Below are positions 935 to 62,671 of a stretch of 64,000 nt of DNA, piece by piece. Below the pieces are notes generated by a model, which did no database searches, was not told the origin of the DNA, and worked only from the letters and a program-made list of their open reading frames with translations. Origin of the DNA: a virus. The DNA lies in IMG/VR virus record IMGVR_UViG_3300010401_000001, positions 1 through 64,000 of that record; one strand, 5' to 3'. Both the position numbers and the translations under genes were made by a program. How positions within the stretch are numbered: the first letter of the stretch is position 1; each line of letters opens with the position of its first letter.

Positions 935-1130
935 TCATCCAGCAGCGGGTGCGGACGGCGGGCTCAGCGTAGCGATCGCCGCATCGACCTTGGCCGCCTC
1001 GGCGCTAGCCGCGTCGATGGTAGCCTGCAGCGTAGTGGCCGCCGCGGCGTCGCCGGCCTGCAGCGCTGCGACCTGGTTCTGCGCCGCCTTGAGCTGGTCG
1101 CGCAGCGTCTGGATGGAGGGCGGCAGTCTT
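935..1130 (-). pseudogene. Start-less C-terminal remnant of an Ala/Gln-rich coiled-coil protein
   Basis: Frame SIQTLRDQLKAAQNQVAALQAGDAAAATTLQATIDAASAEAAKVDAAIATL has protein-like codon use, but an upstream in-frame TGA and no ATG/GTG/TTG start. Confidence 0.4.
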
Positions 1131-1578
1131 CCGGGGGCGTCGCCGGTCAGCCGGCGGCGATTTCGCTCCCGCGTATGTCCGATGTAAAATCACCGCGTTA
1201 TCAGTTTTTCCCCGTATTTCGCTCCCGCCCACCACGGCGATGCCGTCCTCGATAATGCCTGCTCTAACCTTCACGCCGTAGATGGTCACGCCGTGCTCGT
1301 CGCTCCGCACGCGGCGCGCGTCTGCCCCGAGGCACTGGCTGCAGCTGGACGGAGAGCTGTTCCGGCCGTGCGGGGCTTTGCACGTTTTTCGGTTTCTCGA
1401 CGGGAAAACCGTGCAGCGCTTAGCAAAAACGTGCAGCCGAGCGCCGGGTGGTGTCCTAATTTGGCTCGCGAGCTCTTTTCTCGTCGAGCTCCCCTACCTT
1501 GGAGAGCATGGATGAAGCAGCAAACGCGACGCTCAGAACCCCATCCCTGATCACCATCGCCGCGCGGGCGGTGGTTCC

Positions 1579-1887
1579 ATGAGCCGCACCCGGGCGATCA
1601 CGAAGGCCATGCCGAAGCGGCTACCGTCGCGGGCGGACTTCGACACCCACGTGGGCGGGGCACGCCTCGCCATCGGCCGCGCCGAGGCCATCACCTACGC
1701 CTTGCACAGCTACTTCGACGAGCGGCACGTCACCACCGCCGATGACGCCGTAGCCGAGCGTCGCGTGTCCCACCTGATCGACATGGCGGCGGTGGCCACC
1801 GTCGAGGCGTTCGAGGAGCTCGACCGCGCGGCCGATGCCCTCGGGCGCGGGGATGGCGTCCCGGACGCGGACTGGGGCGACGCGTGA
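1579..1887 (+). CDS. Hypothetical protein
   Basis: ORF with good codon bias; GTGA overlap with next gene. Confidence 0.55.
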   Translation: MSRTRAITKAMPKRLPSRADFDTHVGGARLAIGRAEAITYALHSYFDERHVTTADDAVAERRVSHLIDMAAVATVEAFEELDRAADALGRGDGVPDADWGDA

Positions 1888-2102
1888 GCAAGCGTCGCAA
1901 GGCCAAGGCCCGGCCATCGAAGCCGGCCGAGGGAGAGCTCATCGTCAGGGCGCGGACGTTCGCCCTGCTCTGGCGCGTGGCGCACGCGGCCCGCGCCGCG
2001 CTGTGGGCGCCCGAGATGGAGGACTGCGGCGCGGCGGCGTACGTCGTCCTCGACGACGCGATCGACGACCTCGACGCTCACGTCCGGTCGGGAGGTGCGT
2101 GA
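1884..2102 (+). CDS. Hypothetical protein
   Basis: Coupled ORF. Confidence 0.5.
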   Translation: MSKRRKAKARPSKPAEGELIVRARTFALLWRVAHAARAALWAPEMEDCGAAAYVVLDDAIDDLDAHVRSGGA

Positions 2103-2176
2103 TGTCGGCCAGGCACGGGCGGAATTTCAGTGGGCTGTTCTCCGGATCGCGCCCGCGCTACCCTGGCGCGGAGATC

Positions 2177-2479
2177 ATGGACGAAGCTGGTAACGCAGCG
2201 CTGCAAGAAGCGATCAGGCACATGCACGGCTGCGCATCGACCTGGGTGGAGTCGGTTCCGGTGCACGAGACGTTCAACGGCGAAGTCGTCTGGGATGGCG
2301 AGGTCCAGGTCTACGACCTGGTCGGCCACCCGACCGCCAAGCGCGCCTACGCCTGGTCCCACGCCACCGAGGGCACCAAGCGCCGGTTCTACGCCGTGCT
2401 CGGGATCTCGCCCATCGTCGATGCGCTTACCGCGGTCCGTGCGTCGATCGTCGCTGCCGTCGACCGGGGTGTGCTGTGA
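2177..2479 (+). CDS. Conserved hypothetical protein
   Basis: HGC..ESVPVHETF.GEVVW.GEV.V.DL.GHP.AKRAYAWSH pattern recognised as a widespread uncharacterised family. Confidence 0.75.
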   Translation: MDEAGNAALQEAIRHMHGCASTWVESVPVHETFNGEVVWDGEVQVYDLVGHPTAKRAYAWSHATEGTKRRFYAVLGISPIVDALTAVRASIVAAVDRGVL

Positions 2480-2565
2480 TCCAGCGCGCTTCGTCCGATG
2501 AGATCTGAACAGGTGAGCCACGTCTGGCGCGCGTTGCGCGGCACGCGAGCAGATGATACAAGGTA

Positions 2566-2665
2566 GGCGGAAGGCGAGGGACTCGAACCCAACCGGTGGT
2601 ATCAGCACCGGAACCTCATGGGGATGTAAAAACCTCACGCGTGACCTACACGCGGATCGCCTTCC
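2566..2665 (-). tRNA. tRNA-Sec-like / allo-tRNA-like RNA (9-bp acceptor, 3-bp T stem), apparent anticodon UUA, imperfect anticodon arm
   Basis: GGAAGGCGA/TCGCCTTCC acceptor; CGCGTG/CACGCG D stem; CCGGTG/CACCGG variable arm; GGG-TTCGAGT-CCC T arm; G discriminator; ends GCC without the terminal A. Confidence 0.7.
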
Positions 2666-2787
2666 CGGACCGACGCCCCCACCTCGCTTACCCCGCAAGA
2701 GTTTCCGGGGTGGGGGCGCCCACCGATATTTAGAAGCGCCTCGGGCACGGGCGCATCGCTACTACTTTTCCCATAGTCGTCCTTTCG

Positions 2788-3117
2788 TCACTCAGCCTCG
2801 CTGGTTGCCCGATGCAACCCACGGATCAAGTCGACCAATTGCTTTGAGAATCGCGCGTGGGCGTTTTCCAAGATTTCCTTGAAGCCGACCATCGCGCGCG
2901 TGTCCCACTCCCACCAGTCGATAAACGCCTGCGCTTGAGCGGCGTCTTGATTCTCTCCCGGCTTGCTATAGATCTGGTTGTAACTGCGATCTGAATTGAA
3001 CGGCGGGTCCATGTAGCAGAGGTCGACTGACTCGTCGCGAAGGTACTTCCTCATCACTTCCAGGTTGTCGCCATAATAGAGTGCGTTCGACGGCTTCGGC
3101 TTCGAGTCCTTACCCAT
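2788..3117 (-). pseudogene. Truncated N6/N4 DNA methyltransferase
   Basis: LYYGDNL..., VDLCYMDPPFNS catalytic motif; stops at about 110 aa, before any SAM-binding motif. Confidence 0.8.
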
Positions 3118-3247
3118 GGAAAAGATCGTAGTAAGTGCGCTCATCGCGGATCCACTTTCCTCCCTTGCGCTGCGGACGTGCGTGTACATGTGTTCAGATC
3201 TTATAGAAGCGCACCTTGCGCAAGTCCCCGGCCCCGCGTGCGACGGC

Positions 3248-3598
3248 TCACCGCCCCAGGCGACAGCGCCCAGTGCCGCCGCACGTGGGACACCGCTCGC
3301 CGGGCCACCTGCCCGAGAGCACGGCCTCGAGCTTGACCTCCGCCACGAACGCGACCAGCACCGCGACGCGCATCGTGGGCGGGCGCTTGAGCGTCTTCCG
3401 CAGCCCGTCGTAGGTCAGCCCCATCCGACGCGCCAGCTCGCCACGGCCGAGGCGCATGCGGAGGTAGCGGAGCGCGATCCGGACGTGCTCGCGCTGGTCC
3501 TGCGTGAGCACCTCGGGTCGGTGCCGGCGCTCGGCCTCGGGCCGGCGCCACGTGAACTTCTGCTCGAGGATCGACATGGCGACCATCGCGGCATGCAC
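3248..3598 (-). CDS. HTH regulator with C-terminal CxxC
   Basis: ELARRMGLTYDGLRKTL helix-turn-helix; CPTCGG. Confidence 0.6.
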   Translation of the reverse strand: MHAAMVAMSILEQKFTWRRPEAERRHRPEVLTQDQREHVRIALRYLRMRLGRGELARRMGLTYDGLRKTLKRPPTMRVAVLVAFVAEVKLEAVLSGRWPGERCPTCGGTGRCRLGR

Positions 3599-3719
3599 GG
3601 GCGGGATCTGTCCAGGACGGGCTCAAATTAGGACACCACCGAGCGCCGAGCACCGGGATCACTCCACCACGGTTTCCTCGTCCACGAAGTCGTCCGGCGG
3701 GTGGCCGCCTAGTGCCAGA

Positions 3720-3981
3720 TCAACGCGACGGTTTCTGCCCACCGCGCCGGCCCGACTCCGTAACCACCGTGATCCCATTGCTCGACACCGTGGCCAGAAA
3801 CGGCGTGTTACGGGTCGCCACAAAGTTGGACATCTTCCCGTAGCTGTCCTTTGCCAAGGCATACAGCTCGTCGAATTTTAGGTGTCACCACTCGGCCTCC
3901 CGCATCGGTTATCCCCCGCGCGACATGCGGCCCCGCATCCTCGTCGATGACGAAAACGATGCTGGCTTCAGGCAGCCGCAC
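3720..3981 (-). pseudogene. VapC45-type PIN toxin remnant with internal deletion and frameshift
   Basis: N-terminus IVFVIDEDAGPHVARGITDAGGRV overlaps the antitoxin stop; C-terminus ELYALAKDSYGKMSNFVATRNTPFLATVSSNG is in another frame; the middle is missing. Confidence 0.6.
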
Positions 3982-4675
3982 GATGCCATTCGACTGCCTG
4001 ATTAACGATGGACTGCTTCACTACGAACTCCCTGGCCACGCGCGCAGGTGTCTCGCCGGATTCGATGAGGTCGGCGACGATATCGACCGCGACCCCAGTG
4101 CCGGCCATTGTCAGGCGGCCGAACGAGAGATCGGGATCTAGCACCACCGATCGCGGCTCCCCTGCGTCTTTGAGGTACGGGAACAGTCGCTCGGCGAGAC
4201 CGTCAGCATCGCACTCGATACGCTGCAGGCTGTCATCGATCAACTCCTTCATCGCCCGTTGCCCGCCGCCGGCGGTCATATCCACGAGAGCGCCTAACTG
4301 CTTGACGTAGATGTGATACCCGTCGGTGAGGAACTGGTTGGTGAGGAGCGGGCGTGGCATGTCCAACTCCGCGCGCATGTTGTCTATGGCGCGGCGGACA
4401 GCCGTGAGCGGCACCTCGCGAACTCGGCGCAGCGTGTGGAGGACGTACGCCTCGATCAAGTCGTTGAACGTCAGTCGAACCGGATTGCCGTCTGGTAGGT
4501 CGATCAGCGGCCGGAACCGGCCGCTCCGGTTTTGCGCGACCGGATAGTCCATCCCGACGGTCCAGGTCCGAAGCGTCGACGCCGGCATTCGCAGATACGC
4601 CGCCGCCCGCGCCACTGTGTATAGCGGGACTTCGCGCGGATCAGAGTCGCCAAAGATGCTACGAACGCTGCTCAT
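3968..4675 (-). CDS. DUF433 / VapB45-like antitoxin
   Basis: PLYTVARAAAYLRMPASTLRTW HTH; LTFNDLIEAYV; C-terminal VVLDPDLSFGRLTMAGTGV DUF433 motif. Confidence 0.85.
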   Translation of the reverse strand: MSSVRSIFGDSDPREVPLYTVARAAAYLRMPASTLRTWTVGMDYPVAQNRSGRFRPLIDLPDGNPVRLTFNDLIEAYVLHTLRRVREVPLTAVRRAIDNMRAELDMPRPLLTNQFLTDGYHIYVKQLGALVDMTAGGGQRAMKELIDDSLQRIECDADGLAERLFPYLKDAGEPRSVVLDPDLSFGRLTMAGTGVAVDIVADLIESGETPARVAREFVVKQSIVNQAVEWHRAAA

Positions 4676-4807
4676 GGTGGATGCCTCCGAATGGTACCAG
4701 GCGCGCGAGCCTGTGAGCGACTCGGCCCTGGCGATTGCTGACAGCCTAGTGTCAGGTTCGTCAGATCTGAGGAAGTGTCAACGTGCAAAGCTGCCGTGCG
4801 GGCACAT

Positions 4808-5002
4808 CTACGTCGGCACCGATGCCCGCGCGTCGGCGGCTGCGAATGCCTCTTCCCATGTCGCTCCTGACCCGATCGTGCTGGACACGCCGACCGTGCC
4901 GACCACGAACCTCCGCTCGCGCGCAGGGCGACGCAGTCGCATGACCCAAGCTCGCGCACCCCATCTGCGCCGCGCCTCTTCGAGCGCCTGCGCTCTGGTC
5001 AT
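4808..5002 (-). CDS. Hypothetical protein
   Basis: ATGA-coupled to the SNF2 gene. Confidence 0.6.
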   Translation of the reverse strand: MTRAQALEEARRRWGARAWVMRLRRPARERRFVVGTVGVSSTIGSGATWEEAFAAADARASVPT

Positions 5003-22897: not shown

Positions 22898-22969
22898 GTC
22901 TCGATAGCTCAGCGGCAGAGCGGTCCGATTGCACCGGAATGGTCGCGCGTTCGAGTCGCGCTCGAGACA
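22898..22969 (+). tRNA. tRNA with UGC (Ala) anticodon but non-Ala acceptor stem
   Basis: GTCTCGA/TCGAGAC; GCTC/GAGC; loop ATTGCAC; GCGCG-TTCGAGT-CGCGC; no encoded CCA. Confidence 0.8.
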
Positions 22970-23071
22970 CGAATTTTTTAAGGAGCTCAAAGTGAAGTAC
23001 GAATTCCGTCACACCGGCGGCGAGCTGAGAATCGCACCGATTCCGATGGTTCCGGTCGGGGATGGGGCGCT

Positions 23072-52292: not shown

Positions 52293-52535
52293 CCACCCTT
52301 GCGGGCCCCTCTTACCGCCCGGACATCGCTGCAGCGCGCCGGGTTGACGGTCTCGTAGGCCAGGTTCGATCGGCAGCCCACACGCTCTGGGTGGACCGTC
52401 TTGCTGGCGAGGGCTACGACGTTGGCCTTGCGGCCCAATATGGCGTACCCCGCCGCGTCGGGGTCAGAGAGGCTCATGAAGCTTGCAAGTCGGCATTGAA
52501 CCGAGGTGGTGCGGCCACCGAGTCATGAGTATCCG

Positions 52536-52609
52536 TTGCGCGGGCAGGATTTGAACCTGCGACCTCCGGGTTATGAGCCCGGTGAGCTACCTGGCTGCTC
52601 CACCGCACG
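52536..52609 (-). tRNA. Initiator tRNA-fMet (CAU)
   Basis: C1:A72 mismatch, three G:C pairs in the anticodon stem, CTCATAA loop, TTCAAAT T loop; no encoded CCA. Confidence 0.92.
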
Positions 52610-53101: not shown

Positions 53102-53508
53102 GTTCCGGGCACGATCTGCACCTGGCCGTCGCCGAACCTGGTGATGATCGTCGCGCTCACGGTCAGGTTGCGTGTCGTGCCGTCAAAGCTTGACTTGAAC
53201 TCCGCGACGTCGAGCACGCCGGGCACCGCGAGCGCCTCGCCGCGCAGGACCCGGGCGATCTTCGCGGCGTCGTAGGGCTGCCCGAGGATGGCGTCCTGCT
53301 CGGTAACCACGCCGTCCTCGGTCTCGAGCCACGGCGTGCCCAGGTCGCGATTGAGGAACCACTCGTCGCGCCACAGGAGCCACGCCGTGCGCACCAAGAT
53401 GAGCACGGCCTCGAGGCCGCTGGCCTTGCGCAGCGGCACGATGAGGTCGTTGTTCTGGTCGCGCGCGAACACGACCGGATCGGTTGATAGCGCGGTGGTC
53501 GCGGGCAT
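53098..53508 (-). CDS. gp25-like baseplate wedge / sheath initiator
   Basis: EWFL....G.PW...ILG...VPGV..V. Confidence 0.8.
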   Translation of the reverse strand: MPATTALSTDPVVFARDQNNDLIVPLRKASGLEAVLILVRTAWLLWRDEWFLNRDLGTPWLETEDGVVTEQDAILGQPYDAAKIARVLRGEALAVPGVLDVAEFKSSFDGTTRNLTVSATIITRFGDGQVQIVPGT

Positions 53509-54164
53509 CAGAGAACCTTGACCTTCTGCGAGGTGTAGCTGGCGACCGCGGCGTTGAAGCTGTTGAGCGCCGCGGTGATCGCGCTGCCCGCCGCCGTCCC
53601 TCCGGTCGGGATGCCGCTGACCGCTGACGCGATGGCGGTTACAAGTGTGGTCAGCTGCGATAGGAAAGCGTTGCCGAGCAACACGGGTTCCGTGGCCGGC
53701 GAGCCGCCTAGGTTGAGCACGTCTTGGTCGTCGACCTCGGCGAACGTGCCAGCGGGGTCGTCGCCATCGAAGAACAGCCCGGTGATCGCGATCCCGTCAG
53801 CCTCGTGGTGGTGCCGGTCATCGTCCGGGTCAACCACGTCGTCAACCGACTTCAGCTTCGCGATGCTCGACGACGAGAACACGACGAGGCAGCGGTCGCC
53901 GACGCGCACCGGGTACTTGAACCGCTCGATGCCGCTGCCGATCCGCATTACCGGGACGTCGGTCAGCGGCGCGATCACCGTGGTCTGGCGCTCGCCGTCG
54001 CCGTCGACGTGCGCATCCATGACCAGGAGCTACACCGTAGCGCGCCGGGTCGCCTTGTCGTAGGACTCGATCCGGCCGGGCAGAGCGGCGCGGAGCCCAT
54101 CGAGCCGGTCATCGAGCGCGGCGTCGATTACCTCGTTGAGTAGCGGCGTCAGCGAGTCGCTCAT
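53508..54164 (-). CDS. Gp138-family baseplate spike with in-frame TAG at codon 45 (54030-54032)
   Basis: ATG 54164 overlaps the upstream stop; ALPGRIESYD...ATV*LL...DVPV...PV..GD.CLVVF...RHHH..DG. Confidence 0.85.
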
Positions 54165-55428: not shown

Positions 55429-56409
55429 TTATTGCCCTGGAAACGTCGGCGGGAAGTTGCGCTGGAAGCGCTGTAGGTCCTCGTTGCTGATCGAGTTGTC
55501 GATTGTGTCAGGTAGCGACTGCTGGAAGCGTTTTAGGTTGAGCCCGGCCGGCAAGTTGTTCACCTCCGACGTCGGGATCGGCGCGCCGACTCGTGCCTGG
55601 CGCGCCTGCTCGCGCAGGTCGTCGGTCATCTCTGTGCGGCGTTGTCCGGTAAACTTTTCGCCGGTTGTCAGGTCGGTGTACTCTGTCCATGGCATGGCCG
55701 GGTCCTTCTTGCCAAGAACGATGGCCTCGTCCTTGGACAACCCTGGTGGCCGGTTGTATCTGACCTCAACCTGAGTAACTACTCCAACAAATCTCCCCTT
55801 GGCGATGTCGTGTTTCCATTCGACGACGGCATCGGCGACGGCGGCCTTACCGATCGCCGCCTTCGCCTTCGCTTGTCCGCCGGCTCCGGCCATCGAGGTC
55901 CGGACGCGGACCTTGGTGCGCGTGTTCGTGATGACCACGACCTTGCGGAACTTCGCGGTAAAAAACAGCGCGCCTGGTCGCTGCTTCTTGGGATCTGGGT
56001 CGCTGCGGCCGGGGGACTTGTCCTTGTTCACCGGTACGGTCAGGTCGATGAAGGCCATCGAAGTGAACGTCCCCAGGGTCGTCTCGATGCGCACGGGCCG
56101 CCGGGCCGCCTTGAGCTCGCGGAGCCGCTGTAGAGCTTCGGCGGAGGGAAGCGCCGTGCTGGTCGTGCCGTCCGGTCCCGTCTCGGGCTGCCGCGTCGGA
56201 TCGGTGGCAACGTCGCCGATCGGCGTGTCCGAGACGATGCACTCGAGCGTGACCTCGTCGGGAAGCTCGCGGATGTGGTCGGTGAAGTCGACGCCTTTCT
56301 CGACGGGGAACTTCGTGGCTTCTCCGGGAAAGCTGAACTCCTCGGACAAGGCGAGGTCCATCAGGTAGCTCGGCAGTGGCGGAGGCCCGCCGATGCGTAC
56401 GAGGCTCAT
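55429..56409 (-). CDS. Dit-like tail/baseplate protein
   Basis: T.FPVE.G....DH....P. Confidence 0.8.
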   Translation of the reverse strand: MSLVRIGGPPPLPSYLMDLALSEEFSFPGEATKFPVEKGVDFTDHIRELPDEVTLECIVSDTPIGDVATDPTRQPETGPDGTTSTALPSAEALQRLRELKAARRPVRIETTLGTFTSMAFIDLTVPVNKDKSPGRSDPDPKKQRPGALFFTAKFRKVVVITNTRTKVRVRTSMAGAGGQAKAKAAIGKAAVADAVVEWKHDIAKGRFVGVVTQVEVRYNRPPGLSKDEAIVLGKKDPAMPWTEYTDLTTGEKFTGQRRTEMTDDLREQARQARVGAPIPTSEVNNLPAGLNLKRFQQSLPDTIDNSISNEDLQRFQRNFPPTFPGQ

Positions 56410-58094: not shown

Positions 58095-58745
58095 CGCTGC
58101 GCTCCTTGCGCCGCTTCTCGGCGCGCTCACGGGTCTCGTCGCGCGCGTCGAGCAGGAGGTTCAAGAGGTCGACCTCGTTGAGCGACATGGCCTTGACGTT
58201 GGTCCATGCCTGCGCCGGGTCATCCGACTCCAGCACGAGGCGGTACCCTAGCCAGTAGCGCTCGTGCTCTGGCTGGAGTCCTCGGAGGGCGAGATCTTCG
58301 CCATCAGCGCCTTGGGGTCGAACCCGATCAGGCCGAGTCCGTCCAAAAAACCCGAGAACGACACCTCCAGCGCGAGCGTGACGGCGGGGAAGATGTACTT
58401 CTGCCGACCCGTGAACGCGTTGTTCAGCGCGTCCTTGCCCTTCAGGTCGTACGTCCCGGCGCCATCGCCACGCGCGATGAGCGTCGTCCTCTTGAGGAGC
58501 CGCTCGAGGTACGACGTGAGCTTGCCGCTCATCAGCTCGCGCGCGAACATCGCCAGCGCGTCGCCGACCATGACGCGGCCGCGCTGAGCCGCCCCGCCCG
58601 CCGGTGCGACGATTGCCGTCATGTCGGCGAGCAGGTCGGTTGCGTCGCAGAACAGCAGCTCGGTGGAGATGATTTCCACGGAGCCGTCGTCGGAGCGCCA
58701 GGTTTTCTGGCCGGCGGTCGTTCCCATGTTCTTCGCCGCGCTCAC
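58087..58745 (-). CDS. Tail assembly chaperones: G (58248-58745) and -1 frameshift product GT (to 58087)
   Basis: Slippery G GGT TTT TTG at 58345-58353; the -1 frame is open to 58087. Confidence 0.85.
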
Positions 58746-59146
58746 TGGTCACCTCCGGCCTGCATCACCATCTGGTCGGTGATGAAGGTCCATTCCATAC
58801 CGATGATCTTGTTGCCGCGCTTGACGGGCGCGTGCTTCTGGATCGCCGTGTTCACGCCAATGACGAGCGTGCCGTCGTTGAGATCCTCGAGCTGAAACGG
58901 CGCGATGACGCGTGCGTTGTGCGCGATGGATAGCTCGCGGTTTGTCGGCGACTCCTGCGATAGCGTGATCTTGAACGTCCCGCTCTCGTTGGCGTTGAAC
59001 ACGAACGTCGCGAAGCCCTGACTTCCGACGTGCAGATCCACTGCGTTCTCTTGGCGCTCGGCGCCCGCGAACTCGCCATCCATCACGCCCTGCATGCGGA
59101 TCGGCCCCCAGCTCGAGGCCGTCTGCTTTGGATCGAAGGTTGGCAT
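58742..59146 (-). CDS. Tail tube protein (DUF3277-like)
   Basis: TFDPK...SGT..ITL.Q.SP.N..L...EW.F. Confidence 0.85.
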   Translation of the reverse strand: MPTFDPKQTASSWGPIRMQGVMDGEFAGAERQENAVDLHVGSQGFATFVFNANESGTFKITLSQESPTNRELSIAHNARVIAPFQLEDLNDGTLVIGVNTAIQKHAPVKRGNKIIGMEWTFITDQMVMQAGGDQ

Positions 59147-59158
59147 CTGCGGGCGCTC

Positions 59159-60802
59159 CTAGAAGGTGAGGTTGACGTCGACGGGAATGACTGTGTGGAT
59201 CGCACCCGCAAAGGACCCGCTCACCACGAGGCCGGGCAGGTTTCGGTTGTCGAGGTCGGCCTGCGGAATGTCGTCGAAGGCCGGCACTGTCACCGTTGCC
59301 CCGGCGCGCAGCACGCCCTGCGTGATGGACTGCGCCACGAATCCGCGCGCGGCCTGCGCTAGCTGCGAGGCCCCCTCCGGCGTCTGGGGCACGATGTCAT
59401 TGCCGACCAGCACGCCGAGGAGTGCCTTCTGCAGCCCGTCCGACAGGAAGTCGGCGTTGCGGCGGATGTCGATGAACTTGTAGACCGCCGAGAAGACGAA
59501 CGACTCCCAGAAGAACGGCCGGTCCGTCGCGACCTGCTCGTAGCTGTTCATGCGCCGGCCGCCGGGCGTACCAGGGATGCCGCGTAGCCTGACCTTATGC
59601 GAATCGGTCAGCGTGACGGGCGTGACGAGCTCGAGCGTCTTGAACTTCGCGGTCGCCTTGCCAGGGTCGGTCGGTAGCCAGCGCCCCATGATGCCGGCGG
59701 CTAGGAAGTTCGCCGGCGATGGGTGGTAGCATCCCATGCTCGCCGCGTACCCGGCCGACAGGCTCTGCGCGCCGACATCGGTGCCGCCGCTCACATCGGT
59801 CGTTACGCATGCCGAATCGCACGTGTCCCACGCGTAGGTGCGCCCGTTCACCTCCACCCACGCCTCAGCATCCTGAACATACGCCGAGCTATTGTAGTTC
59901 GTGAGCAGCGTGTACCAGCCCTGGTCGGCCTTGAGGATCGCGTCGAGGTCGGCGGTTAGCAGCACGTTGCTCGGCGATGCGTGGGTCTGCGCGATGCTCA
60001 TGACGTCTGGGTCGTCGATGGAGAGCGATGCCCACGACGTTCCGGCCGTCGCCACCGCGCGGAGCTTGTCGGTCTGCCCGGCCCCAGCGATCTGCGACAC
60101 CGTGAAGTTCGAGCCCAGCACCGTGGCGAGTCCGGCCACGAGCTGCGCGATGATGACGTCGTTGACGCCGCGCTGGAGCGTGTGGGTTCCCGAGCCGGCC
60201 GCGGTGATGTCGATCGCGGTGTTCGCGAGCGCGTTGGCCTTCGAGGTCGCTAGCTTATAGCTGTTGACGTCGACGGCGATGATGAAGACGTTGGTGTCGA
60301 CGGCGATCCCGGTGCCGGTCGGCAACGTGCCAGTGGTTGACAGCCTGAACGGCCCATCCCCCGTGGCCATGCCGTGGCCGGGCTCGGAGATGGTATCGGT
60401 CGCCGTGTTGACGTCGCCCACCGCGAACGGCAGATCGGCAAGCGCGAGGTAGCTCGCAACGCCATCGGCGAAGCCGCGGCCCTTGGCCGTGATCTCGTAG
60501 AGCTGACCGACCTGTACGGCCGAGATCCCGATGTCGTACTGCTGCAGCACCGTGCCCGCGGCGCGCCCAATCGCGATCAGTCGCGGGTGCGGCTGTTGCG
60601 CGAAGATCACCGCCGCGGCGCGCGCCTCCGGGCCATCGACCGGGAAGTCGGCGATGACCGCGGCGAGGGAGCTGTAGTAGCGGATCCGCTGCACGAACGA
60701 CGCGGTGTGGCTCAGGATGAGCGGGATGCCGAAGCCCTGCCGCGCGAGCCCGGAGCTCTGGATCGTCAGGTTGATGACTACGTGGTCGGTCGCGGCGCCC
60801 AT
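59159..60802 (-). CDS. Tail sheath protein (DUF3383-like) with inserted domain
   Basis: GFG.PLIL, IFAQ.P.P....IGR, KFKTL, FIDIRR.AD, AGAIH. Confidence 0.9.
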   Translation of the reverse strand: MGAATDHVVINLTIQSSGLARQGFGIPLILSHTASFVQRIRYYSSLAAVIADFPVDGPEARAAAVIFAQQPHPRLIAIGRAAGTVLQQYDIGISAVQVGQLYEITAKGRGFADGVASYLALADLPFAVGDVNTATDTISEPGHGMATGDGPFRLSTTGTLPTGTGIAVDTNVFIIAVDVNSYKLATSKANALANTAIDITAAGSGTHTLQRGVNDVIIAQLVAGLATVLGSNFTVSQIAGAGQTDKLRAVATAGTSWASLSIDDPDVMSIAQTHASPSNVLLTADLDAILKADQGWYTLLTNYNSSAYVQDAEAWVEVNGRTYAWDTCDSACVTTDVSGGTDVGAQSLSAGYAASMGCYHPSPANFLAAGIMGRWLPTDPGKATAKFKTLELVTPVTLTDSHKVRLRGIPGTPGGRRMNSYEQVATDRPFFWESFVFSAVYKFIDIRRNADFLSDGLQKALLGVLVGNDIVPQTPEGASQLAQAARGFVAQSITQGVLRAGATVTVPAFDDIPQADLDNRNLPGLVVSGSFAGAIHTVIPVDVNLTF

Positions 60803-61175: not shown

Positions 61176-61463
61176 ATGCTCGCAAAGCTCCTGGTGACGT
61201 CCGGAAATCCTGCGCCGAAGCCCGGCGATCTCGTAGTAGTCGAAGTCCCGGCCAACTGCACTATTCACAGCACGGATGCCGCGCGGCTCACTCGCCTGCG
61301 TGTCATGGCTCGCGAGCTTCGCGACGCCATCAAGACCGGGCAGAGCGAGGCGGTCATCCTCCGTCTCGCCTATGGCGTGTCCGAGTTCGCCGACGTCACC
61401 GACGCCGATGCCGGCAGTATCGTCGACGTGCGCATCAGCTCGACTATGGAGGCGTCCCGATGA
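61176..61463 (+). CDS. Opposite-strand moron gene
   Basis: Coupled to the next gene; ends SIVDVRISSTMEASR. Confidence 0.6.
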   Translation: MLAKLLVTSGNPAPKPGDLVVVEVPANCTIHSTDAARLTRLRVMARELRDAIKTGQSEAVILRLAYGVSEFADVTDADAGSIVDVRISSTMEASR

Positions 61464-62065
61464 CGCGCTGCAACTACATCCCGCCCGATGGCCTGTCCGT
61501 CATCGCGATCGCCAAGGAGCGCGGCAGCACGACCGACGGAGACATCCAGGCGCTGGTCGACAGGTTCGGGTGCAAGGCGGAAGCGGCGTACCAGATGACC
61601 GCCGAGGAGGATTCCGACCGCGAGCAGTTCTCGTGCATCGACCACGTCGGTCATCTATGCGGCGACGAGTACTGGCTCGTGGAGCCGGTGTACAGGCCGC
61701 CCGGCGATGTTGCGATCTCGATCGTCAACACGCAGGGCATCGCGCGCGCGGGGTTCGGATCGCCGATGATCCTCGCGCCGGTCCCGACCACTACGCCCAT
61801 CGTTGATCTCGGCACCAACCCGACCCGCGAACAGATACACGCCGCCGGGTTCAACGACGACAGCGATGAGTACCGCAGGGCTCGCGCCGCGAACACGCAC
61901 CGGCCGCCAAACAGTACAGGATTCGATCCCAATCTCGTCGCCGACGCAACCTCCGCTGGTGGCTACATCGCGTCATGCCAGTTCTGCGGCAGCCGACAGG
62001 CCATCGACGCCCTGGACATCACCATGTGCTGCCCGAGCTGCCGGGCGAAGCATGGGTTACCGTAG
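61460..62065 (+). CDS. Chimeric protein containing a sheath N-terminus-like segment and Zn motifs
   Basis: VAISIVNTQGIARAGFGSPMILA vs sheath VINLTIQSSGLARQGFGIPLILS. Confidence 0.65.
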   Translation: MTRCNYIPPDGLSVIAIAKERGSTTDGDIQALVDRFGCKAEAAYQMTAEEDSDREQFSCIDHVGHLCGDEYWLVEPVYRPPGDVAISIVNTQGIARAGFGSPMILAPVPTTTPIVDLGTNPTREQIHAAGFNDDSDEYRRARAANTHRPPNSTGFDPNLVADATSAGGYIASCQFCGSRQAIDALDITMCCPSCRAKHGLP

Positions 62066-62119
62066 ATCGACGCTCTGCTCGATGCTGTCCGGTACGAGCG
62101 TCACCTCCTGGAAGCCATC

Positions 62120-62671
62120 ATGCGCGCGCTGACCAGCGACGACCCAACCCGGGCAGCACCATACGCCGTCGGTGACGAAGTCCGGTGGCGCACCGGTCCG
62201 TGCGACTTCGTGTGGCACCTCGGCCGCGTGACCTCCATTGTCGATGACCGACCCAACGATGGCATCGACAAGCCGTTCTGGATCGTGCGCGTTGACACCG
62301 CGGGCGAGCGGCGCTTCTCCGGTCCGGTCATCCAGACGTGCCTGCGAAGGGAATACCCGGCCGACGACAGCCTACGGTCGTCAGCCGCCGCCACGGCATC
62401 CGGGCTCTGCAAAGCCGTGATCGCCGTACCCGGCGTCAACGCCGTCACCGTGGTTGAGTACGACCGCGGCGAGGTCGAAGTCTTCGCTGACGGCGGAGAT
62501 CCGGACGCGATCGCGCGCTGCATCTACGACAACACGTGGCCCGGGGTCGTGCTCCGCGGCCAGGAAACCGGCGACATCGGCAACGGTACGCGAGTCGCGT
62601 TCTCGCGCGGAGCAGCGAGCCGACACCCGGGCACCGGCGGCATTGTCCGCATCACGTTCGTAGAGCGCTGA
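62120..62671 (+). CDS. Chimeric protein containing a baseplate-J C-terminus-like segment; in frame with the previous ORF across one TAG
   Basis: VFADGGDPDAIARCIYDN...GV...G...VAFSR vs J MVKGGADQDIWDALLDN...GI...G...MAFSR. Confidence 0.65.
   Translation: MRALTSDDPTRAAPYAVGDEVRWRTGPCDFVWHLGRVTSIVDDRPNDGIDKPFWIVRVDTAGERRFSGPVIQTCLRREYPADDSLRSSAAATASGLCKAVIAVPGVNAVTVVEYDRGEVEVFADGGDPDAIARCIYDNTWPGVVLRGQETGDIGNGTRVAFSRGAASRHPGTGGIVRITFVER

Follow-up and report, generated by a model that had tools for sequence, protein, structure and literature searches.

The virus record analyzed here is complete, measures 89,855 bp and has terminal repeats of 123 bp and a G+C content of ~66%; its first 64 kb form the window. 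On the minus strand of the window lies a gene for a tRNA-shaped RNA in which the acceptor stem has 9 bp and the T stem 3 bp, and whose apparent anticodon is UUA (Table 1). A leader hairpin and a fragment of a DNA methyltransferase gene lie upstream of it, and a second hairpin separates it from a convergent gene (2099-2479, plus strand). The phage genome codes for a tyrosine integrase, a Mom-like protein, DNA methylases, helicases and a contractile-tail module, and the source record is therefore that of a temperate tailed soil phage. The other tRNAs of the phage are Ala(UGC) and Met(CAU), the latter being of the initiator type, as indicated by a C1xA72 mismatch and GGG/CCC in its anticodon stem. 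In G001, a related phage, the equivalent site close to the spike gene is occupied by a tRNA-Val(UAC), and a tRNA-Ile(UAU) is found at another locus.

Table 1. Positions of the features discussed in the text, numbered along the window.
Feature	Position	Strand	Basis or remarks
(9/3) allo-tRNA gene	2566-2665	-	Sequence, fold, Rfam tRNA-Sec, arm order and lengths of published (9/3) species
Acceptor stem, 5' strand GGAAGGCGA	2657-2665	-	Pairs with 2569-2577 (UCGCCUUCC)
D arm, 6-bp CGCGUG/CACGCG, 5-nt loop UAGGU	2638-2654	-	Pair probability 0.90-0.96
Anticodon arm UGAGGU-UUUUACA-UCCCCA	2619-2637	-	Rfam alignment; pair probability 0.04-0.28
Variable arm CCGGUG-CUGAUAC-CACCGG, perfect 6-bp stem, 7-nt loop	2593-2611	-	Sequence and fold; pair probability 0.95-0.97
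T arm, 3-bp GGG/CCC, loop UUCGAGU	2578-2590	-	Pair probability 0.91
Conserved leader hairpin, 10-bp outer stem CGCCCCCACC/GGUGGGGGCG	2674-2718	-	9 nt upstream of the tRNA
Hairpin between convergent gene 2099-2479(+) and the tRNA	2519-2547	.	Fold and comparison with X3
N6/N4 DNA methyltransferase, N-terminal fragment of ~100 aa, DPPF motif present	2788-3117	-	Homology ends at ~2797-2809
HTH_66 + DUF433 protein	3968-4615		Pfam
Phage tRNAs, tRNA-Met(CAU) among them	52535-52609 and 22898-22970	- and +	Window
In-frame TAG, codon 45 of the baseplate spike gene (53508-54164)	54030-54032	-	Pfam PF18352; 18 relatives; G001
In-frame TAG between ORFs 61460-62065 and 62120-62671	62063-62065	+	G001, L024, coding score

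Fold and classification of the RNA

The mature body of the RNA spans 2568-2665 (98 nt). The discriminator G73 lies at 2568 and is followed by CC (2566-2567); the full CCA is not encoded. The acceptor stem consists of nine Watson-Crick pairs (RNA positions 1-9 with 89-97, pair probability 0.86-1.0), of which G1-C72, G2-C71 and A3-U70 match bacterial tRNA-Ser, and ordinary phage tRNA-Ser genes have GGAAGGC...GCCUUCC in common with it. A 2-nt linker, UC, joins the acceptor to the D stem. A 7/5 register would leave the T stem with three of five pairs; the RNA pairs instead as a 9/3 branch. Pair probabilities exceed 0.85 in all helices but the anticodon stem, in which an A.C and a U.U pair interrupt four Watson-Crick pairs and account for the low value. 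This stem occupies six positions, follows the D stem with no spacer and carries a 7-nt loop, UUUUACA, with U32 and C37; tRNA position 37 is almost always a purine. The anticodon UUA, as placed by the Rfam tRNA-Sec alignment, lies at 2627-2629 (TAA on the plus strand). Two nucleotides, UU, separate the variable arm from the GGG of the T stem, and the linker on its 5' side is unusually long. The heptamer UGAGGUU occurs twice in the RNA (29-35 and 48-54; window 2631-2637 and 2612-2618, respectively), the first copy being the anticodon stem's 5' strand and the second lying right before the variable arm.

Searching with the Rfam tRNA-Sec covariance model (RF01852), a check suggested with the original prediction, aligned the whole molecule (2569-2665, minus strand) at 36.5 bits, below the gathering score of 47, with E values of 1.3e-5 in a 601-nt search and 4.7e-7 in the whole genome. 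The fold had a z-score of -2.63, and none of 200 shuffled sequences folded as well. ARAGORN and the general tRNA model did not detect the RNA, and relaxed ARAGORN runs gave inconsistent calls. The acceptor, T, D and variable arms named in the original prediction were all recovered on the minus strand, read from 2665 to 2566, by sequence and fold; the Rfam alignment and the pair probabilities likewise bore out its UUA anticodon, two anticodon-stem mismatches and C37.

Its long acceptor, 6-bp D stem, long variable arm and G73 are shared with tRNA-Sec (selC, RF01852), its best Rfam match. Unlike tRNA-Sec, however, the RNA is 9/3 rather than 8/5 and has UUA rather than UCA, and SelA and SelB had no match in the phage genome. 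The anticodon, the sub-threshold score and a phage without SelA and SelB together ruled out tRNA-Sec identity.

Allo-tRNAs were first found as sub-threshold tRNA-Sec matches; they take 8/4 and 9/3 forms, mostly of serine identity (G73, long variable arm) (Mukai et al., Nucleic Acids Res 2017, PMC5389517). In the natural 9/3 forms the anticodons correspond to Arg, Leu and UAA codons, and amber variants suppress strongly in E. coli; the original (9/3) species came from short reads and were assigned to Acidobacteria (PMC5389517). We compared the phage RNA with published (9/3) sequences (PMC7590224 supplement; S001, S012, S020, S026, S032 and S055). They are alike in a 9-nt acceptor starting with GGA, a 2-nt linker, a 6-bp D stem followed straight away by an anticodon stem of six positions, a variable arm that has a loop of 6-7 nt and stands immediately 5' of GGG-TTCRAYT-CCC, and G73. 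A sub-threshold tRNA-Sec match and soil origin are also common to both, and natural species with a UUA anticodon for UAA are among the published ones. The phage RNA differs in having a D loop of 5 nt rather than 4, A.C and U.U in the anticodon stem (S012 has a mismatch there too), a loop that reads UU-UUA-CA (U32, C37) where the published ones read CU-NNN-AA (C32, A37), and five extra nucleotides 5' of the variable arm (a linker of 5-7 nt rather than 0-2), which repeat the anticodon-stem strand.

On the strength of its architecture, its arm lengths and the sub-threshold tRNA-Sec match, we assign the RNA to the known class of (9/3) allo-tRNAs; its doubtful feature is the anticodon arm. The arm-by-arm match to the published allo-tRNAs and the tRNA-Sec alignment thus support the class originally proposed, that of RNAs with a 12-bp branch, here with an ochre-type UUA. 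Most knowledge of allo-tRNAs comes from short metagenomic reads and engineering work; the present case is a (9/3) species with a stop anticodon in a complete phage genome.

Conservation in other soil samples

Contigs from three other soil or rhizosphere studies (X3, X4 and X5) cover the allo-tRNA. One X3 contig spans 2422-2715 and has four third-position changes in the end of gene 2099-2479, which still adjoins the tRNA in this diverged relative. The 72-nt spacer that follows has 13 substitutions and two indels relative to the phage (18% diverged). By contrast, the trailer, tRNA and leader (2552-2715) have one change in 164 nt (Fisher p 9e-7 against the 13 of the 72-nt spacer). The sole polymorphic base of the RNA, at 2602, is in the middle of the variable-arm loop and changes GAU to GGU in X3 and X5. 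The X4 contig is identical to the phage over 2611-2755. The leader hairpin is identical in the contigs from the other studies except for 2699 G>A in X5. In the hairpin 20-45 nt downstream of the tRNA, a double change from U-A to C-G keeps the pairing in X3; this hairpin is probably a bidirectional terminator that lacks a U tract. A second X3 contig matches 2727-2809 and then departs, exactly where the homology of the truncated methylase ends.

The allo-tRNA and its leader thus form a block that has been kept while its surroundings vary. We asked how this bears on a decaying gene, which was one reading in the original prediction. Such a gene would be without function, a degenerate copy of an allo-tRNA or tRNA-Ser that the phage had acquired. 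Two anticodon-stem mismatches, C37 and the 7-nt duplication UGAGGUU would suit decay, as would the truncated methylase gene next door, the frameshift in the portal gene and the two nonsense codons of this genome (see below). The RNA is nevertheless near-identical in three other studies beside a flank that is 18% diverged, its remaining arms are all perfect, and the flanking hairpin shows a compensatory change. We therefore disfavor the decaying gene and hold it to be highly improbable. Conservation of the block argues against a pseudogene and would fit purifying selection or recent spread of a mobile block alike; the allo-tRNA is conserved and probably functional.

The single polymorphism also bears on which loop would decode. 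In one alternative, the anticodon is not UUA: either UUU (Lys, with A37) is read one base earlier in a 9-nt loop closed by G-C, or the second hairpin is the anticodon arm of a five-arm tRNA (Ile GAU, or Thr in the GGU allele) or a pseudo-anticodon that recruits a synthetase, and the RNA would be a missense tRNA. The second hairpin, unlike the first, has a canonical 7-nt loop, CUGAUAC, with U33-like and A37-like bases and a pair probability of 0.95-0.97, and the only polymorphism in 164 conserved nucleotides is the middle base of this loop. Five-stem-junction allo-tRNAs and tRNAs with GGU anticodons have been described, and most natural allo-tRNAs bear sense anticodons (PMC5389517); in addition, a pseudo-anticodon engineered in the variable arm recruits a synthetase (PMC7590224). 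Yet the published (9/3) species place their variable arms, with 6-7-nt loops, exactly where the second hairpin lies, right before GGG-TTCRAYT-CCC, and their anticodon arm right after the D stem. If the second hairpin were the anticodon arm, it would leave a 2-nt variable region and 26 nt between the D and anticodon arms, and neutrality equally predicts a change in the variable-arm loop. The arm positions relative to the published species favor the UUA reading, and we consider a different decoding loop decidedly unlikely.

Exact and degenerate DNA patterns found no allo-tRNA homologue in viral contigs, where acceptor and T arm were shared only by ordinary phage tRNA-Ser genes (L005 and L006). 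In genome contigs they gave no match, and in metagenome contigs one unrelated match that is not a tRNA (L015). BLAST of the allo-tRNA against phage and plasmid records found no useful homologue, and neither did searches of the relatives G001-G004 with the element DNA and RF01852.

The accessory island around the tRNA

The related phage G001 (65% complete) lacks the region corresponding to window 943-4811, an island that includes the allo-tRNA, and its available sequence has no tRNA-Sec-like match. The two phages are otherwise close, with 92-93% identity in the spike protein and 89-96% in the other shared genes. The island holds small genes that have no assigned function, the methylase fragment, a zinc-ribbon protein and a protein with HTH_66 and DUF433 domains. 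The break in the methylase fragment coincides with the start of the block shared with the other studies, and no C-terminal part of the methylase was found in the rest of the phage genome.

On the other side of the tRNA, the protein encoded at 2099-2479 belongs to a family of ~100-aa proteins that is widespread in soil bacteria (Myxococcota, Verrucomicrobiota and Acidobacteriota). It had no match in Pfam, PHROGs or PADLOC, and its predicted model (pLDDT 78) had no fold match in the PDB. The neighbor proteins P0005 and P0127 are 84-90% identical.

A PIN toxin-antitoxin remnant had been proposed about 1 kb from the tRNA. Pfam searches of every frame of 3500-4150 gave no PIN domain; the protein found there instead is the HTH_66 and DUF433 protein (Table 1). 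DUF433 proteins are often the antitoxin partners of PIN-like toxins. With Pfam, PHROGs and PADLOC, no nuclease, toxin, transposase or defense gene was identified near the allo-tRNA.

We also considered how the island might have been acquired. An attachment-site (attP) origin is unlikely because the integrase lies 28 kb away. Carriage by a transposon was rejected as well: no transposase was found, the zinc-ribbon protein being only a weak match, and a 23-nt inverted repeat in the island looks more like a promoter or operator. This repeat (1441-1463/3624-3646, core GGTGGTGTCCTAATTTG) lies upstream of both of the gene sets converging on the tRNA, and may be a shared promoter or operator or mark the ends of a 2.2-kb module. 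A search for a sigma-70-like promoter of the allo-tRNA found none.

In-frame TAG codons and possible roles of the RNA

Two genes of the phage are interrupted by in-frame TAG codons. The first TAG falls within the spike N-terminal domain (PF18352), which covers residues 28-129. At this codon, 17 of 18 relatives have Gln and one has Leu; G001 has CAG, from which a single C-to-T change gives TAG. The second TAG divides a gene of the tail operon (61460-62671) that is a single 469-aa ORF in G001. The 18 codons past this TAG score as coding in the same frame, and the linker that they form has homology to sequence of L024, a third phage, in which the ORF runs on without a break. The gene's middle segment is a swapped cassette, 86 codons shorter than that of G001. 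Among 60 ortholog pairs with G001, just these two genes are split at a stop in the phage, both at TAG. In the one comparison genome, G001 (65% complete), sense codons at both sites go together with the lack of the tRNA island.

Stop usage in 129 genes called with a self-trained codon model was 106 TGA (82%), 15 TAG and 8 TAA, and the genetic code of the phage is standard. Genome-wide stop recoding was dropped as an explanation, as TAG and TAA still terminate genes and just two in-frame TAGs were seen. Recoded phages such as the crAss-like phages in which TAG is Gln (PMC9523058, PMC7886860) are similar in that the phage supplies a tRNA whose anticodon matches a stop and that late structural genes contain in-frame stops; they have many in-frame stops, however, whereas the present phage has two, with standard stop usage and its natural TAG and TAA stops kept. 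These natural stops are unchanged between the phage and G001, and stop usage accordingly gives no sign of adaptation. Read-through tails after TAA stops were not significantly shortened (n = 8), and dN/dS upstream of the spike TAG was uninformative. Three further candidates (TAG at 72675, TAG at 59159 and TAA at 55429) proved to be ordinary gene boundaries rather than recoding.

The comparison with G001 also brought out a frameshift. The portal gene (Pfam Phage_portal_3) has a 1-nt deletion inside the portal domain (~81241-81244 of G000, minus strand, outside the window) that splits it into two frames. It is continuous in G001 and L026, and no slippery site was evident at the deletion; a gene call at 81238-81558 (plus strand) was a shadow ORF over the frameshifted gene. 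Such a frameshift is beyond any suppressor tRNA. The record may therefore represent a defective phage or include errors of assembly, and the same decay may have produced the TAGs. As the portal gene cautions, in-frame stops in a phage assembled from a metagenome should be checked at the level of reads before recoding is claimed.

In a rival reading, the conserved, tRNA-shaped RNA would take no part in decoding, and the two TAGs would be lesions of no relevance to it; the portal frameshift shows that the genome carries lesions that have nothing to do with suppression. The RNA could act as a decoy or sponge for anticodon nucleases or as a regulator, or it could be the selfish cargo of a small module that recombines. 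Defenses that cleave tRNAs are known to be countered by phage tRNAs (PMC10264068, PMC11555353). Allo-tRNAs with destabilized stems were inactive in E. coli and lay near toxin-antitoxin or transposon genes (Mukai et al., PMC5389517). The inactive allo-tRNA(UAU) and the five-stem-junction RNAs of that study resemble the phage RNA in their destabilized stems, possible fifth helix and accessory or mobile setting; they differ in that only the anticodon stem is weak here and no transposase or toxin gene was identified nearby. With a pair probability of just 0.04-0.28, the weak, U-rich anticodon arm would be bait or irrelevant, and a second reading of its loop, UUUUUACAU, is UU-UUU-AC, which would mimic the loop of tRNA-Lys(UUU). 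Known anticodon nucleases target that tRNA-Lys loop. The setting agrees with such a role, as the accessory island is missing from G001 and lies at the recombination junction that truncated the methylase gene. Against it, the whole tRNA body is kept, including the acceptor, T arm and G73 that charging and use on the ribosome require; the RNA retains every feature of allo-tRNAs shown to be active; and the databases searched named no nuclease, toxin or transposase in the vicinity. We regard a non-decoding role as possible, at clearly less than an even chance.

Suppression is the other role that we considered: the allo-tRNA would be a suppressor serving the two TAG-bearing genes. Classical E. coli ochre suppressors (supB, supC and supG) have the same UUA anticodon, which reads UAA and, by wobble, UAG at low efficiency. 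Unlike the phage RNA, they are point mutants of ordinary tRNAs with a 7/5 body, an intact anticodon stem and a purine at 37. For the phage, we propose that transcription would run leftward through the leader hairpin, after which host RNase P and 3' processing enzymes would trim the RNA and CCA would be added. Host seryl-tRNA synthetase would charge it through G73, G1-C72/G2-C71/A3-U70 and the long variable arm, not through the anticodon. The UUA anticodon would pair with UAA and, by U.G wobble, with UAG, as in the classical ochre suppressors, and the loosened anticodon stem may favor stop reading; in a recent study, weakened 4-bp anticodon stems raised near-cognate stop reading (PMC13092985). 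Low-level read-through would then yield some full-length baseplate spike and some full-length product of 61460-62671, and most natural stops (82% TGA) would be untouched.

Several observations bear on this suppressor reading. The weak nonsense suppressor of the original prediction gained circumstantial backing from the two in-frame TAGs; the frameshifted portal gene, which a suppressor could not mend, weighed the other way. In its favor, the single change in 164 nt sits in the variable-arm loop, where a tRNA of this kind is least constrained. Counted against it are the A.C and U.U pairs in the anticodon stem, U32 and C37 where published allo-tRNAs have CU-NNN-AA, and the fact that the in-frame stops are both TAG, which UUA would read by wobble, its cognate target being UAA. 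The 5-7-nt linker 5' of the variable arm may also disturb recognition by SerRS; in allo-tRNA engineering, serylation was reportedly blocked when one bulge was introduced into the stem of the variable arm (PMC7590224). Taken from comparison of sequences, a suppressor acting on these two genes is a tentative explanation, and we put it somewhat short of an even chance.

A stronger form of the suppressor reading, which we think unlikely, is that the allo-tRNA is an active ochre/amber suppressor supplied by the phage and that the lineage depends on it, such that an accessory tRNA would gate or dose the spike and the 61460-62671 protein in a phage with the standard code. If this is true, both full-length proteins would be made solely when the tRNA is expressed. 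In a bolder variant, the variable-arm loop, in its GAU or GGU allele, would be a natural pseudo-anticodon that chooses the synthetase charging the suppressor. The present phage makes stop suppression by natural allo-tRNAs in vivo directly testable, with two concrete candidate targets: the TAG at a conserved spike Gln and the TAG within 61460-62671, which relatives have as a single ORF.

One further TAG lies among the tail genes: within 58742-60802 (minus strand), TAG terminates the sheath gene and the tube gene follows in the same frame after four codons, and any amber read-through there would fuse sheath and tube.
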